Of a DNA stretch of 14,241 nt, positions 1,312 to 9,938 are shown in pieces. Below the pieces are notes generated by a model that did not search any database, was not told the DNA's origin, and worked only from the letters and a program-made list of their open reading frames with translations. Location of the stretch: the NCBI GenBank assembly GCA_027001995.1, contig JALTLO010000178.1, positions 1 through 14,241 of the forward strand, in the 5' to 3' direction. The translations under genes and the position numbers were made by a program. Positions within the stretch are counted from its first letter, which is position 1; each line of letters begins with the position of its first letter. Source of the stretch: Planctomycetota bacterium (GTDB lineage Bacteria; Planctomycetota; GCA-002687715; DRQF01).

Positions 1312-2268
1312 ATGGGTGCTGAGGTCGAGAGAGACTCTGACGACTTTTTTGAACATTACGAGCGGGGCATGCGTATCTATTCCCAGTGGCGTCGGAACCC
1401 TGGGGATTTGGATTTTGATGGACTTTGTCTTCGTTTTTCTACGGAGCGCGATGTCCTTGTGGCGCTTCATGAAGACCCCTTGCGCATTGATGATCGGACC
1501 CTCAGCAATCTGGGGCCCTATGAACTCGATCAGCGAATAGGCCACGGCGGGCAAGGATTTGTGTGGTTGTCGTTAGTTGACGGAAGGAAACTTGCAATCA
1601 AGCAGTTGCCCTTACGGGCAAGTGCCGCAGCCAAACGAAGATTTGAGAGAGAAATTCGCACTCTTCGCTCTGTGCCAGCTCATCCCAACATCGTTGCCAT
1701 TGTTGACGCCTCAAAGAATCAAGATCCTCCCTACTATGTGATGGATTTTGTTCCAGGGCCCTCCTTAGATGCTGTCATCGCCAAGAAGGCTGATCGAGCC
1801 TACGGTAGTATGCCTCCGAAGACTGTAAAGAAACTCCGAGCCGCCATCGCTGTCTTCATGGGAGTGGTGGATGCTGTGGCACATTTGCATGCTCATGGTG
1901 TCGTGCACAGCGACATCAAGCCCCACAACATCGTTTTCCAAAGTCCCGATCATCCCATCCTTGTGGATTTCGGATTGGTTCGAGGGACGGGAGAAGGGCT
2001 CTTGGTCACGCAGTCAACGGAGGTGGGGGGGACGCCTTACTACATGAGCCCTGAACAAGTTCGAGGTGAACAATTTGGCCCAGGCTCTGATGTTTTCTCT
2101 TTGGCGGTTACGCTTTTTCAACTTCTCACAGGGAAGGTCCCTTTTTCCGGGGCAACGGCGGGTGAGGTTGGACGAGCTATTGAACAAGAGGAACTTCCTG
2201 ATCTGAGGAAGTTCAACAATTCAGTTGATCGAGATCTCAAGGCGATCATTGAGATTGCAGCGGCCTAG
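1312..2268 (+). CDS. Hanks-type Ser/Thr protein kinase (N-terminal segment of an interrupted kinase-FGE fusion)
   Basis: Motifs GHGGQG, AIK, RFERE, HSDIKPHN, DFG, GTPYYMSPE, SDVFSL. Purine-rich GGGGGAAG lies upstream of the ATG. The ORF stops at TAG before kinase subdomain XI. Confidence 0.9.
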   Translation: MGAEVERDSDDFFEHYERGMRIYSQWRRNPGDLDFDGLCLRFSTERDVLVALHEDPLRIDDRTLSNLGPYELDQRIGHGGQGFVWLSLVDGRKLAIKQLPLRASAAAKRRFEREIRTLRSVPAHPNIVAIVDASKNQDPPYYVMDFVPGPSLDAVIAKKADRAYGSMPPKTVKKLRAAIAVFMGVVDAVAHLHAHGVVHSDIKPHNIVFQSPDHPILVDFGLVRGTGEGLLVTQSTEVGGTPYYMSPEQVRGEQFGPGSDVFSLAVTLFQLLTGKVPFSGATAGEVGRAIEQEELPDLRKFNNSVDRDLKAIIEIAAA

Positions 2269-2313
2269 AACCCTAAGCATCGGTATATCGATGGTCAAGC
2301 TTTTCTTGATGAC

Positions 2314-4059
2314 TTGAAACGGTGGAAAGACGGGATTGCCCCAGAGGCCCGAAGGCGCGCTTTGGTGAACCGGCTCAAAGTTGCGGTCAAGCGCCATCGA
2401 CTTTCTATTGGTCTTTCTGTTGTAACGATCATCATGGGAATCATGATGTTGCAGGTTCGGGCCAGTGAGTTGGAAGCGACGGAGAATGCCAAAAAGGCGG
2501 AGAGGGCAGCCCATGAAGCTGAGTGGGCCCGAAAGGAAGAGAGCGCTGCGCGTCTTGGGGCGCTTGCTCAGAGGGATGAAGCCCAAGCCCTCCTGGAGAA
2601 GGTGGATATTTTCACCAGCGAAGCGCGACTCAGGAATCTAGCAACTGGCGTAAACGGGCTCTATCCAATTGCATTGTCAGGACGCCCAGCGACAGTTCAG
2701 TGGATTCATGAAGTGGATCAACTCTTTGAAAAAGCGCACGAAGTGGCAGGCAGTTTCTTGTCGGTTCGAAGAGAAGAAGACAGTGGTGAGATGGAGCGTC
2801 CCGTGTCGGTCCTGCATGAACGGCTTCGGGTGCTTCGTGAGCATATTGCTCGTGACGAGGGCAGAGTCGGGCACAATTTGGTGAAACATTTTAAACTGTC
2901 AGATCACGATATCTTACATATCGATCAATTGAAGGCTCAGGCCCACGAAGTGGAGTTGGCAATTGTCAATGAACCGCGAGTTCAGTACCGCGATCAAGAA
3001 GGGACCATCAAGGCGACAGCCAATGCGATCATTGACACGATTCGCTTGATTCGTGGAAAACACGGGGCGATGGCTGAGGTCAAGGAGATCATCGCGAGTC
3101 TTGACCGGATAGAAGAGGTTTCAAGCGCCAAGAAAGCCCAAGAGGCTTGGGCTAAGTGCATTAAAGAGGTGGAGGCAGATCCAGTTTATGGTGGCCTTAA
3201 GCTCGTCGATCAGGAAGGTCTCCTTCCTCTTGGCAAGAATCCAAGAACTGGTTTGCAGGAGTTTAGCCACATACTCTCTTCAGCCCCGGGAGCGGAATGG
3301 CCGGGGGAACGGAATCCCAATGGTGGTTTCACTGTGACGAAGGAACGAGGCCTTATTTTTGTTCTTTTGCCTGGGGGCAAGACTCAGGTTGGTGTTCAGG
3401 GTAGAGATCCGAAGAAACCGCTCTTCGGCAAGGTCGGGGCAAAGTGGGGGCAAGTTCATACGCTTAATCTTGATCCTTTCTTTGCTTCCAAGTACGAGTT
3501 GACACAGGCGCAGTGGGGGCGTTTGAACCGTGGTCGTGTACAATGTTTCTCGGCGAATCTTGGGCGTCATACTTGGCCAGCAGATAGTGTGTCTTACGTC
3601 CAGGCTGAAAGCCTTATGAGCAAGTATCTCATGGAGGTACCTAGCTGTGCTCAGTGGGAGTATGCCTGCCGTGGAGGTACGACAACACCATGGCCTTTTG
3701 GCACAAATAAGCGGGATATCGCCAAGTTCGCCAATATCTATGATCCGAAAATACCTGTGGGGATCAGGAATGTCGGCGGCAAGCTTCCCAATAATTTCGG
3801 ACTCTTCGATATGATTGGAAATGTTCAAGAATGGACGACTGATCAGATTCCTTTTGATCACCCACGTTCTGGCGATGGAAAGGTGCCTGACAACGGGGAG
3901 CGCGAAGTACGGCAGATTCGAGGGGGAGGTTATGCAACCGATCCAAATTCTGCCACATCGTTCAATGCGATGGTCGGCATCGCTGAGACTGACGGCGCCA
4001 TGCCTAATGGCTTTCGTCCCATTCGCCGTCTCTTCTTAGCAACAAAAGGCAAAAAGTGA
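2314..4059 (+). CDS. TM helix, coiled coil and FGE-sulfatase (SUMF1/formylglycine-generating enzyme-like) domain (C-terminal segment of the fusion)
   Basis: Hydrophobic LSIGLSVVTIIMGIMML (2401-2451). FGE-family motifs LLPGG, KYELTQAQW, AQWEYACRGG, PNNFGLFDMIGNVQEW, RGG, GFRP. Same frame as the kinase; the TTG start is probably not a real start. Confidence 0.85.
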   Translation: MKRWKDGIAPEARRRALVNRLKVAVKRHRLSIGLSVVTIIMGIMMLQVRASELEATENAKKAERAAHEAEWARKEESAARLGALAQRDEAQALLEKVDIFTSEARLRNLATGVNGLYPIALSGRPATVQWIHEVDQLFEKAHEVAGSFLSVRREEDSGEMERPVSVLHERLRVLREHIARDEGRVGHNLVKHFKLSDHDILHIDQLKAQAHEVELAIVNEPRVQYRDQEGTIKATANAIIDTIRLIRGKHGAMAEVKEIIASLDRIEEVSSAKKAQEAWAKCIKEVEADPVYGGLKLVDQEGLLPLGKNPRTGLQEFSHILSSAPGAEWPGERNPNGGFTVTKERGLIFVLLPGGKTQVGVQGRDPKKPLFGKVGAKWGQVHTLNLDPFFASKYELTQAQWGRLNRGRVQCFSANLGRHTWPADSVSYVQAESLMSKYLMEVPSCAQWEYACRGGTTTPWPFGTNKRDIAKFANIYDPKIPVGIRNVGGKLPNNFGLFDMIGNVQEWTTDQIPFDHPRSGDGKVPDNGEREVRQIRGGGYATDPNSATSFNAMVGIAETDGAMPNGFRPIRRLFLATKGKK

Positions 4060-4108
4060 GTTCGCTTTGTTCACATTCGGTGTTTCGCAGGTTGGAGAAA
4101 CGAACGCT

Positions 4109-4699
4109 ATGACTGAATTTAACGACCTATTCGAACGTGCGAAGAAACAAGAGCCAGACGCTATCAACGAACTGCTTGACCTTCTTCGGCCTATTGCTGA
4201 ACGCTATGCTCACTCGAAACGGAGTCAGGCCCATCGATGGCTGGAAGACACGGTTGACATTGTTCAACAGGTGCTCTTTGATTTCTCGGTCAAACTACCG
4301 AAAGTTGATTTTTCTAATGAGACAGCTTGCCGTTCCTACGTCCTGAAAGCCATCGAGAATCGGCTGCGTAGTCAGCATAACTGGATGGATCGGGAGAAGA
4401 GAGCCCAAAATCGGGGTCAGCGGGTTGCAACCGGATTTGAGTTGCAAGGTGACAAACGGTTTCTCAATGACCAGGATGGAGCCTTGACGGATTTGGGGAA
4501 ACGGGAGCGTATTGAAAAAATGAAGAATAAAGTTCAATCCTTGCCTTCAGCTGATCAAGAGCTGCTGCGGTTGCGAGATACAGAAGGCGAAACTTGGCCC
4601 ACAATCGCCAAGAAGATGGATGTGAGCGCAGACGCCGCTCGTCAGCGTTACAACCGCATCATCCAAGCCCTTCATGGGCAGCTGCGAGAGTCACCATAG
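4109..4699 (+). CDS. ECF-type RNA polymerase sigma-70 factor (kinase-associated, planctomycete-like)
   Basis: Region 2 EDTVDIVQQV...AIENRLR and region 4 LPSADQELLRLRD...WPTIAKKMDVSADAARQRYNR. ATG 4109 is preferred over TTG 4067 because of GGAG at 4094-4097. Confidence 0.9.
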   Translation: MTEFNDLFERAKKQEPDAINELLDLLRPIAERYAHSKRSQAHRWLEDTVDIVQQVLFDFSVKLPKVDFSNETACRSYVLKAIENRLRSQHNWMDREKRAQNRGQRVATGFELQGDKRFLNDQDGALTDLGKRERIEKMKNKVQSLPSADQELLRLRDTEGETWPTIAKKMDVSADAARQRYNRIIQALHGQLRESP

Positions 4700-4743
4700 C
4701 TGTTTTGTTTGCTTTTGGGATTTTCTTGATGTGGGTGAATTTT

Positions 4744-5358
4744 TCACATCTCGACGCTGGGTGGTAACCCCTTTTTCTTGAGTTCAGCCACTTTCTTGGC
4801 GAGGCGCTTGAGGGCTCTTCCGAAGCGCATTCGCGCCGCATCGGGGGTAGAGTTGATTGTCTTGGCTAAGTCGTCGAAACTGAGATTCTGGAATTGCCGA
4901 AGTTCAATGACTTCCCGGTCTGTTTGAGATATGAGTTCAAGGGCGACATCCAAGATGGCCATGGATTCTCTCTTGCCGGCTTCTGTTCCTGGTCCGTCGA
5001 TGGAGTCCATGCGATCTAAGTCAATGATCCTCTGAGTTCCTCGTTTTTCGGCTTGGAGTCCTCGATGTTTGTCGATTAGGACATTGATAGCGATGCGGGC
5101 GGTGAGGGCCCGAAAGGCTTTGGGGTCAGAAACGAGGTATTTAGGGCCGCTCTTGAGTACCCTTAGGACGGTTTCTTGAACCACATCCACGCTGTCGAAT
5201 TCAACCCGAATCTCTGGACCAATGCGCTGACGCACAACCTGCCGGATCCATGGCATATGTCTGGCCAAGAGGGTCTGGAGCGCCGTTTCGTCACCTTCAT
5301 GGGTACTCTTGAGGAGATCACGGGTATTGTCGTGTGATTGGGACTGAGATCGGGTCAT
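4744..5358 (-). CDS. ECF-type RNA polymerase sigma-70 factor (kinase-associated, planctomycete-like)
   Basis: Motifs GDETALQTLL, FDSVDVVQET, IAINVLID and DREVIELRQFQNLSFDDLA...DAARMRFGRALKRL. ATG 5358 chosen; the ORF track extends to 5388. Confidence 0.9.
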   Translation of the reverse strand: MTRSQSQSHDNTRDLLKSTHEGDETALQTLLARHMPWIRQVVRQRIGPEIRVEFDSVDVVQETVLRVLKSGPKYLVSDPKAFRALTARIAINVLIDKHRGLQAEKRGTQRIIDLDRMDSIDGPGTEAGKRESMAILDVALELISQTDREVIELRQFQNLSFDDLAKTINSTPDAARMRFGRALKRLAKKVAELKKKGLPPSVEM

Positions 5359-5598
5359 AGGAGGTTCTCTTTCTCTGGAAAAGATCACATCTTGCGATCT
5401 TAGACCATTTCATTGTGTTGTCATCTGGAGACGGTGGGAATTGGCGATTCGAACAGTTTCTTTCGTGTTTTCTTGTTTTCTTGTTCGCTTTGGCCCTGAG
5501 AGGCGTTTTCCCCAATAACTATGCGTTGCCTTGGTATTCATGAGTAGTTGGGGCATCCACTCCAAGCAAGACTGTTGAAAATTCGGAAGGGAAAGACC

Positions 5599-8398: not shown

Positions 8399-8920
8399 TT
8401 AAGATTCGAGCATGGTGATCAAAAGATCTGCATAGGCGCAGGATTCCAAGTCTTCTTCGTTGATGGATAATTTTTTCATGAGATCTTGGGCAATCCTTTG
8501 GCCATAGGTGGCGTCTTGATCTTTGGTCAGGACAACTTCTAATTCCATGAAGTTGCCAAGTCCTTCGACTTCGTCCAAGTGAATGCGGGTCTGCCCAACA
8601 AGGTAGAGTTCTCTGCGTTTCTTCACCACGACGGTTTCCCCCAAAGACTTTGCCATCAGGAGGCGAAACTCCTGGGGGTTGGAAATGGGATAAATCTGGT
8701 AGTGGGATTGTTTCGATTTTGCGGTGTCGGGGCGTTCATATTGAATGAGCTCGGCACTTTTGTCTGAAAATATTCGCAGCTTGAGTCGGCCATGAGGAAC
8801 TTTGAAGAACACATCTTCTTGGAGGATGACTTCCATGGGACAGGTCGCCAAGTCCTGGGCAAGTGCCCGCAGGGCATTCATGTCGTGGACCTTAGCTTTG
8901 ATTTCTGTGTTAACGGGCAT
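8399..8920 (-). CDS. CYTH-domain protein (class IV adenylate cyclase/triphosphate tunnel metalloenzyme family)
   Basis: MPVNTEIKAK (ExExK-like), QEDVFF, GRLKLR, VKKRRELY, RIHLDEVEGLGNFMELEVVL, AYADLL. Family proteins begin at this motif, so ATG 8920 is preferred over TTG 9070. Confidence 0.9.
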   Translation of the reverse strand: MPVNTEIKAKVHDMNALRALAQDLATCPMEVILQEDVFFKVPHGRLKLRIFSDKSAELIQYERPDTAKSKQSHYQIYPISNPQEFRLLMAKSLGETVVVKKRRELYLVGQTRIHLDEVEGLGNFMELEVVLTKDQDATYGQRIAQDLMKKLSINEEDLESCAYADLLITMLES

Positions 8921-9066: not shown

Positions 9067-9402
9067 TCAAATCATCTCGAGAAGGTTTTCAACGGGGCGT
9101 CCCAACATGGCTCTGCCATTGCCCGCAAGGATAGGGCGTTGAAGTAGAGTCGGGTGTTTCGCCATGAGTTCAATCAACTTCTCGGCTGTTTCGTTTCCGC
9201 TTAGGCCTAATTTTTTGGCATCGCCTCTCCGAAGAAGCTGTTGCGGCGTCATGGCTAGATCTTTGAACAAGTTTTGAAGTTCGCAGACATCCAATATTTC
9301 TTCCTGATACTCGCGGTATCGAAACGCAATCTCTCGTTCATTTAGCAGGGCGACCGCCTTGCGGCAAGTGCCTCATGTCTCGGTGCAAATGAGTGTCAAC
9401 AT
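9067..9402 (-). CDS. ArsC/Spx/MgsR-family thioredoxin-fold protein, probable selenoprotein (UxxC), 111 aa
   Basis: From ATG 9402 (AGGA upstream): MLTLICTET-UGA-GTCRKAVALLNEREIAFRYREY..., in frame with ORF 9067..9294 (LLRR, HPTLLQRPI, GRPVENL). The UGA at 9375-9373 occupies the family's N-terminal redox Cys position. Confidence 0.85.
9345..9362 (-). promoter_or_regulatory. Candidate bacterial SECIS stem-loop
   Basis: GCAAGGC-GGUC-GCCCUGC (6 of 7 pairs) begins at +11 after the UGA. The apical loop starts at +18 and contains GGUC, as in the E. coli fdhF SECIS loop region. Confidence 0.6.
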
Positions 9403-9447
9403 GGGAATTGCAGTCCTATTTTCTTTGGGATGTGTGAGTTCGGGAAT

Positions 9448-9478
9448 ATCTTAACATTCTGATGGTACCCTGCCGCAA
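9448..9478 (-). promoter_or_regulatory. Possible promoter for the ArsC-family gene
   Basis: Extended -10-like TGtTAAGAT (9456-9448), with TTGCGG 19 nt upstream of the hexamer. The spacing is non-optimal. Confidence 0.25.
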
Positions 9479-9607
9479 TCCTTCCGGCCACGGCGCTGGA
9501 GAAGAGTTGAGGCTCCATGCCGGGTTAGACCTTGTGAAGTAGTGGGAAGTTGCCTTAGTTGAAGGCTAACGATCGGGGCGTAACGGAAGTTGGCGCATCC
9601 GAAGCAG

Positions 9608-9704
9608 TGAATCCGCCTCTTCGGTATTGTTCTGGTTGGATAGCGGCTTGGGGCCATTGGTTGGCATTGAGCCTTAAGAGGTCGGCGAAAAGAAAAACGC
9701 GTGG
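9608..9704 (+). repeat. Copy B of the diverged 97-bp direct repeat
   Basis: Partner of 8091-8187. It overlaps the U-tract arm of the tRNA terminator. Confidence 0.85.
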
Positions 9705-9727
9705 CGCATCAGGTGCGCCACGCGTTT
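9687..9727 (-). terminator. Rho-independent terminator after tRNA-Pro
   Basis: Perfect inverted repeat AAACGCGTGGCGCA-N5-TGCGCCACGCGTTT (9695-9727). On the minus strand the GC stem is followed by TTTTTCTTTT. Confidence 0.9.
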
Positions 9728-9730
9728 CTG

Positions 9731-9808
<78 letters not shown>

Positions 9809-9938
9809 AGTTTTGTTTTTCCCTGTTTGGCATCTGCTGAGACGCCAGAACTGGGAGAGAGAATGTATCACTGCTTCGGTTGAGGTCAAGATCTTCGCTC
9901 TAACTTCTTTTGTTTCAGAGGTTTCTGGTCACATTTCT

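Follow-up and report, generated by a model that had tools for sequence, protein, structure and literature searches.

The window analysed here is a stretch of 14,241 nucleotides from a member of the Planctomycetota (contig JALTLO010000178.1). On its minus strand, at 9067-9402, lies a gene predicted from its readthrough translation and from Pfam family PF03960 to encode an ArsC-fold selenoprotein of 111 amino acids, followed by a stop codon. The gene runs from an ATG (9402-9400) to a terminal TGA (9069-9067). The sole in-frame TGA between the two is codon 10 (9375-9373), which is predicted from alignment and from relatives to specify selenocysteine (Sec) at the position of the catalytic cysteine, Cys12 of R773 ArsC. 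With this TGA read as Sec, the 111-residue product begins MLTLICTET*GTCRKA. The mechanical open reading frame (ORF) is a piece of 75 amino acids (9067-9294). The initial annotation took this ORF for a truncated call of a longer gene, with the family N-terminus upstream across a single TGA and an RBS-like AGGA in front of it; the coordinates and the translation agree on each point. The putative AGGA is at 9417-9414 on the same strand, 11 nt 5' of the ATG, and a same-genus relative (G014) also has AGGA upstream.

The TGA is also present in a contig that a second study (run X3) provides for 9239-9483; this contig has five differences from the window, none of them in the TGA or in the hairpin that follows it. 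Run X1 is a possible source of the window and hence is not independent. As the same TGA and hairpin are present in the second-study contig, the codon is not an assembly slip.

Beside the selenoprotein gene is a CYTH (class IV adenylate cyclase-like) gene (8399-8920, minus strand). The CYTH domain begins at residue 54 of a 223-residue mechanical ORF; the gene therefore probably starts at the ATG at 8920 and does not abut the selenoprotein gene. This neighbour had been considered noteworthy, but it is incidental: there is no CYTH match at the loci of relatives (L009-L069) or among 119 neighbour ORFs. No neighbour family is common to more than three of 46 loci. Elsewhere in the window, a tRNA-Pro(GGG) gene (9733-9809, minus strand) is followed by a palindromic stretch (the two together at 9572-9809); a contig joint that leads back 129 bases, together with raised depth across 9572-9700, suggests a repeated element. 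The region 1312-5388 encodes a Ser/Thr kinase, a protein with an FGE-sulfatase domain and two ECF sigma factors in convergent orientation, which have weak matches to a Planctomycetaceae subfamily.

Conservation of the UGA codon and its hairpin

Close relatives were taken to be the 53 rows with more than 100 bits, which represent 47 distinct proteins; rows under this score were excluded, as was one locus that is cut. Codon 10 is TGA in 39 of the 47 and TGC in the other eight, which is the mixture of TGA and Cys codons that the initial annotation predicted. It had also placed the UGA at the redox cysteine of the family, and the codon does align both with Cys12 of R773 ArsC and with the TGC of the eight relatives. 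Pseudenhygromyxa sp. WMMC2535 is a named strain that has the Cys form (WP_172303370.1). In a survey of the class, eight of 23 genomes matched and all eight have TGA at this codon; five encode CxxxUxxC and three the canonical HxxxUxxS. In a phylum sample of 401 genomes, 96 matched a profile. The top 13, at more than 110 bits, each contain one TGA; the score then drops to 84. A further 19 loci from genomes and 26 from metagenomes came out of pattern scans. Outside the Planctomycetota, carriers are labelled Myxococcota, Calditrichota and Pseudomonadota.

Public protein records mostly miss the active site. Those of the nearest relatives (HGY91446.1 and MFT7618178.1) are 93-residue fragments without it, and the N-terminal motif is absent from 68 of the 120 best protein matches, nearly all of which are pieces of 92-98 amino acids. 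As it stands, the main value of the present case is an annotation fix. Four public proteins of the lineage (P0048, P0054, P0066 and P0087) have Trp at the Sec position; these are probably gene calls made under a table in which TGA encodes Trp.

A putative SECIS-type hairpin (9345-9362, minus strand) was identified by folding, conservation and covariation. It lies at +11 to +28 from the UGA, where the initial annotation had located a stem-loop with a GGUC loop. The stem (GCAAGGC and GCCCUGC) has seven positions, of which six are paired and one is an A-C mismatch; the GGUC loop (9355-9352) is 17 nt after the UGA. The hairpin matches the published bacterial SECIS model, which has a 4-nt loop starting with GG, a 7-bp stem and a distance of 17 nt from the UGA (PMC13188914, Fig. 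2 legend). When compared with shuffled sequences, its stability is no greater than expected by chance (z = -0.19, -1.06, -1.18 and +0.52 for four stretches); the case for it therefore rests on conservation. In this sense the proposed folding check gave a divided answer: fold strength by itself does not single out the hairpin, but its conservation in relatives, with compensatory changes, does.

At least six of seven pairs and a GGUC loop are found in 38 of the 39 TGA genes, against one of the eight Cys genes; the Fisher p of 1e-6 for this contrast is overstated, since kin are not independent. The same 18-mer is present in 32 of the 39. In the TGA genes, synonymous positions are nearly frozen across codons 14-19, and codons 7-9 and 20-29 are variable. 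Among 37 distinct rows, 98.1% of cells are paired and four cells have changed on both sides of the stem; none of 500 shuffles reached this level and slid controls were 30-59% paired. A hairpin with a GG loop at the same offset follows 203 of 205,916 TGA triplets in the genome, a count for which the offset was chosen after the hairpin had been seen.

The initial annotation also implied Sec machinery in the host. In the host genome (5.2 Mb, 92% complete), selA, selB, selC and selD are all present with scores over curated cut-offs, and ARAGORN finds a tRNA-SeC(tca). The selA, selD and selC genes are clustered on one contig (C148, 21750-24409) and selB is on another (C17, 34238-36124); selD has one in-frame TGA of its own. 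Across genomes with the TGA form, selA is found in 17 of 18 (16 over the cut-off and one cut by a contig end), and the one miss is a genome that is 84% complete. It is also found in three of four genomes with the Cys form.

These results bear on the reading of the TGA as a nonsense mutation, an assembly error or a Trp codon under another genetic code. The fragmentary public records, the four Trp-containing proteins and the unexceptional fold of the hairpin are what such a reading could draw on. Against it, the TGA is kept in 39 distinct genes from several phyla, Cys forms lose the hairpin, the second-study contig has the same letters, the gene's own terminal TGA falls where homologues end, and the host has the complete set of sel genes. 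Such an origin is hardly credible; with the covariation added, it is refuted for practical purposes. A UGA at the active-site cysteine, a conserved hairpin and full Sec machinery together make an ArsC-like selenoprotein very likely, and recoding of codon 10 as Sec, judged by this comparative evidence, is almost certain. Each prediction made at the outset for a UxxC selenoprotein came out as expected: the TGA and Cys codons of relatives, the hairpin kept by those with TGA, and the sel genes.

Family placement and fold

The protein matches Pfam PF03960 (ArsC) with 46.2 bits (cut-off 24). Its best NCBIfam model is TIGR00014, the glutaredoxin-type arsenate reductase family of R773 ArsC, at 75.8 bits, which is under the cut-off of 106.05; four Cys relatives score 80.8-89.4 on the same model. 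Spx and YffB models give 21-49 bits overall, including 39.3 on NF002459 (cut-off 123) and 49.3 on TIGR01617 (cut-off 75.05), both of the Spx/MgsR type, and 37.7 on the YffB model NF008107 (cut-off 121). The two parts of the protein behave differently. Residues 33-111 score 54.8 bits on TIGR00014 versus 22.8 on TIGR01617, and residues 1-32 have weak matches to Spx, YffB and glutaredoxin models (best on Spx, 20.7 bits) and none to TIGR00014.

An AlphaFold2 model built from 98 sequences (pLDDT 95.9) has the ArsC fold. Its best structural match is 3rdw (TM 0.92); R773 ArsC gives 0.90-0.91, and the range across Yersinia and Vibrio ArsC-type structures and R773 ArsC is 0.87-0.92. Scores are lower for Spx (0.69-0.80) and YffB (0.79), and Z scores give the same order. 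Alignment and structure comparison agree on a register of +2 to R773 ArsC, so that Sec10, Cys6 and Cys13 stand at the positions of Cys12, His8 and Ser15.

Three arginines align with those of solved ArsC-type proteins and, like Pro103, show no variation in an alignment of proteins (98 of 98). Arg58 (9229-9231, minus strand) is the equivalent of Arg60 in the arsenate-binding triad. Arg89 (9136-9138, minus strand), followed by Pro90, corresponds to Arg94, and Arg102-Pro103 (9094-9099, minus strand) correspond to Arg107-Pro108. Two co-evolving sets, Arg60/Arg107/Pro108 and His8/Asn9/Ser15, are required for arsenic resistance (PMC5593903, Table 2). The lineage keeps the first set and replaces the second: where the H-x3-C-x3-R motif has its His8, Asn9 and Ser15, the protein has Cys6, Thr7 and Cys13, with Arg14. 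The arginine/Pro108 set is lacking in Spx and YffB (PMC5593903, Table 2; PMC3169414). YffB has a set of its own, Lys93 and Asn60 (PMC5593903, Table 2), for which the protein has Gln88 and Arg58; by this measure it is not of the YffB/YusI type either.

Spx and YffB share the superfamily and the fold with the protein, and the UxxC is at the position of the Spx CxxC. This position, together with the preference of residues 1-32 for Spx models, might suggest an Spx-like redox-sensing regulator which binds RNA polymerase. It is a very unlikely role, given that the whole protein falls far below the Spx cut-off, its fold match to Spx is below that to ArsC, it has 111 amino acids compared with 131-132 in B. 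subtilis Spx, and it carries the Arg60/Arg107/Pro108 set which Spx lacks. The initial label of 'ArsC/Spx' is therefore kept in its ArsC half (best model, triad and best fold match) and dropped in its Spx half. As far as sequence goes, the protein sits beside glutaredoxin-type ArsC and away from Spx, a placement which follows from the arginine triad and the conserved Cys6. It belongs to an unmodelled lineage recognised by its CxxxUxxC motif combined with the ArsC arginine triad; the monophyly of this lineage is unsettled by trees.

Relation to known ArsC-like selenoproteins

One catalogued form of ArsC selenoprotein is UxxS, of the TIGR00014 type (PMC1088965, Sargasso Sea, 2005). The present protein resembles R773 ArsC and TIGR00014 in family and fold, in the triad and Pro108, and in the position of the nucleophile; it differs in having Cys for both His8 and Ser15 and in its sub-threshold score. 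Canonical HxxxUxxS genes were also seen in three genomes of the same order (L013-L015 in G016, G017 and G015); their hairpin is longer and different.

The initial annotation was right that ArsC-like selenoproteins have precedent; the UxxC form, which it singled out for a check, was itself in print by 2008 (PMC2398784) and appears in later catalogues (PMC9312934, PMC13188914). The list 'Arsenate reductase 2 (UxxC, cd03032)' from the GOS data contains 42 reads (PMC2398784, supplement 3), and the window protein has what membership in it takes, an ArsC domain and UxxC. By eye, two of the 42 (JCVI_READ_2161197 and JCVI_READ_1093018614276) share with it the start LICxxTUxxCRKAV, and most others look NF041106-like; the list is a mixed bin. 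Members of the lineage had thus already been published as predicted selenoproteins, though without being told apart from other lineages. The relevant passages of the GOS paper (Zhang and Gladyshev 2008, PMC2398784) neither separate the lineage nor mention a third cysteine. No text separating it or naming CxxxUxxC was found in the literature searched, in which the string 'CxxxU' was sought only in PMC13188914 (no matches in the text covered); BSepDB, Rosen et al. 2020 and Haft and Tolstoy 2025 could already hold the lineage.

The one modelled UxxC family is NF041106 (ArsC_rel_Se_1), to which the 2026 catalogue ties its 'Arsenate reductase-like protein, UxxC' (PMC13188914). Likenesses to the window protein are a length of about 110 amino acids, the ArsC superfamily and a UGA-encoded N-terminal UxxC. 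Membership in this family was considered and rejected: the window protein has no match to the model at E up to 10 (cut-off 85 bits), and three Cys relatives score 16.8-18.8. A search of the host genome with the model (E up to 1) finds a different gene instead of that in the window. This second ArsC-superfamily selenoprotein gene (L101, contig C78, 18446-18760) is a true member of NF041106, with 115 bits and an in-frame TGA; only 17 residues of its product align with the window protein.

A further ArsC/Spx-like UxxC lineage is present in Planctomycetota. All 15 of the low-scoring TGA loci that were fetched have UGA at the first Cys (L086-L100, in G379, G195, G042, G198, G301, G122, G241, G284, G226, G244, G367, G164, G126, G182 and G046, respectively). 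Five of them were compared with the NCBIfam models and none reaches a cut-off, the maximum on NF041106 being 29.2 of 85 bits; they group together at 100/100. Rosen et al. 2020 reportedly distinguish nine ArsC clusters. The label 'ArsC-like UxxC selenoprotein' conceals three lineages or more, and just one of these has an NCBIfam model. The window gene is very likely a real hidden selenoprotein of an already known kind, from a lineage which lacks a model of its own and has a predicted twist in the active site. A separate curiosity among the public proteins is P0160 (490 amino acids), which has a canonical ArsC domain (385-489) behind what by eye appears to be a dihydroorotate dehydrogenase; this is a fusion or a gene-call artefact.

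Active site and proposed function

The codon of Cys13 (9364-9366, minus strand), the second residue of UxxC at the Ser15 position of R773 ArsC, specifies Cys in 47 of 47 close relatives. Sec10 and Cys13 very probably form a redox pair, to judge from these residues. The third thiol is Cys6 (9385-9387, minus strand), four residues before Sec at the His8 position. It is present in 36 of 39 TGA genes, eight of eight TGC genes and 51 of 52 full-length Cys proteins, and residues 7 and 8 beside it vary freely. One genome-scan pattern included Cys6 and therefore favours it. In the pattern-free search, Cys6 is found in ten of 13 Planctomycetota genomes (two others have Gly and one Ile); all of the 21 metagenome TGA loci that only a pattern without Cys6 could reach also carry it. 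Among the best 150 cluster representatives, of which a few rows are mis-parsed, HxxxCxxS accounts for 74. CxxC combined with a different residue at -4 accounts for 42, and the triad is present in 41 of these. CxxC with the triad is thus common and only Cys6 marks the lineage. For the same reason, and because Gly or Ile replaces it in three of 13 genomes, neither the fold nor the family, as seen in these alignments, requires Cys6.

A parallel exists in thioredoxins with [ST]-x3-CxxC. In B. cereus BC3987 and NrdH-redoxins, the pKa of the buried second Cys is lowered by a Thr at -4, which lies 3.4-3.8 A away (PMC3720550). The window protein differs in that -4 is Cys, the nucleophile is Sec, and an ArsC helical domain and triad are added. 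By analogy, Cys6 likely tunes the reactivity of Cys13, with the Cys6-Cys13 distance carried over from another family.

A mechanism can be proposed as follows. SelB would bind the GGUC loop and deliver Sec-tRNA, placing Sec at residue 10, as in established Sec biology. The three conserved arginines would hold an oxyanion, probably arsenate, for attack by the Sec10 selenolate. Cys13 would then resolve the adduct to give a Sec10-Cys13 selenylsulfide with release of the reduced product; Cys6 probably lies beside Cys13 and would keep it reactive, much like the Thr of [ST]-x3-CxxC thioredoxins. Recycling of the enzyme would probably fall to a partner of thioredoxin type. If Cys13 resolves the adduct internally, the enzyme could do without the steps in which classical ArsC uses glutathione and glutaredoxin. 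Taken as a whole, this chain from oxyanion reduction to thioredoxin-type recycling has roughly an even chance of being correct, and the odds that arsenate or a similar oxyanion is the substrate are about equally balanced. The loss of His8, which is needed for arsenic resistance, and the score below the TIGR00014 cut-off both weigh against arsenate in these sequences, as does a separate candidate for arsenate reduction in the host genome.

That candidate is an ArsC of the LMW-PTPase type (L105, contig C141, 12810-13196), which scores 147.3 bits on TIGR02691 (cut-off 174.3). Its first two cysteines are present and the third relay cysteine is apparently absent; the part played by Cys89 in B. subtilis ArsC is deduced from pI258 numbering. 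An arsenite pump gene, acr3, is on another contig of the host, and the LMW-type gene is not beside it. Within 1.5-3 kb flanks, acr3, LMW-type arsC and arsR are near the gene in none of 47 loci of the clade, and likewise in none of 19 control loci with canonical ArsC, so that ars linkage does not discriminate here.

A real selenoprotein with a more general task is a possible but rather unlikely alternative. It would be a thiol-disulfide oxidoreductase, glutaredoxin-, NrdH- or YffB-like, acting in repair of oxidative stress, with an arginine pocket that holds some other anionic group and with arsenate irrelevant. The lean of residues 1-32 towards Spx, YffB and glutaredoxin models, the loss of His8 and the lack of ars neighbours (shared with the canonical controls) all fit such an enzyme. 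Thiol-redox genes are also found within 2-3 kb in five of 46 loci, a figure with no control count: MsrB (L054), MsrA (L047), a TrxB-like flavoprotein (L051), OsmC (L022) and Grx4 (L026). These neighbours are all different genes, however, and the full triad with the Pro108 equivalent, which YffB and Spx do not have, is invariant. Oxyanion reduction remains the preferred reading.

Glutathione provides a weak argument for the arsenate reductase. In the host genome, at 92% completeness, there is no match to gshB or PF04262; the GCS2 family is represented by one gene, and a single glutaredoxin-like match is weak. Across carriers, gshB is over the cut-off in none of 13 planctomycetes, seven of nine others and none of three canonical UxxS carriers. 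With this spread, the motif cannot be put down to an absence of glutathione.

Cys6, Sec10 and Cys13 might also act jointly, with Cys/Cys in place of His8/Ser15 around Sec on the R773 fold. One form would be a relay in three steps, in which a Sec10-Cys13 bond is followed by a Cys6-Cys13 disulfide; the other would be a site that binds As(III) or a metal through three ligands. The protein would then be a self-resolving reductase, a trap or a sensor. The high conservation of Cys6 between free neighbours would suit this idea, as would the closeness of the -4 position to the buried Cys in thioredoxin folds (PMC3720550); a three-cysteine relay (pI258 ArsC) and a three-cysteine As(III) site (ArsR) are both established (PMC9807832). 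It is nevertheless improbable, as position 6 is Gly or Ile in three of 13 genomes and one Cys protein also lacks Cys6; moreover, reductants would have poor access to a buried Cys6-Cys13 disulfide. If it were true, the protein with its Cys-Sec-Cys site would reduce arsenate independently of glutathione on an R773 fold, convergent with the three-cysteine relay of the unrelated pI258 family. Should the third cysteine be functional, the natural Sec/Cys and Cys6/Gly6 variants would provide a test of an R773-type ArsC that works without glutathione.

Two of the loci with redox neighbours differ in arrangement. At L054 (2001-4200), msrB and a dihydrolipoyl dehydrogenase gene come after the relative in the same orientation; at L047, msrA faces the relative.
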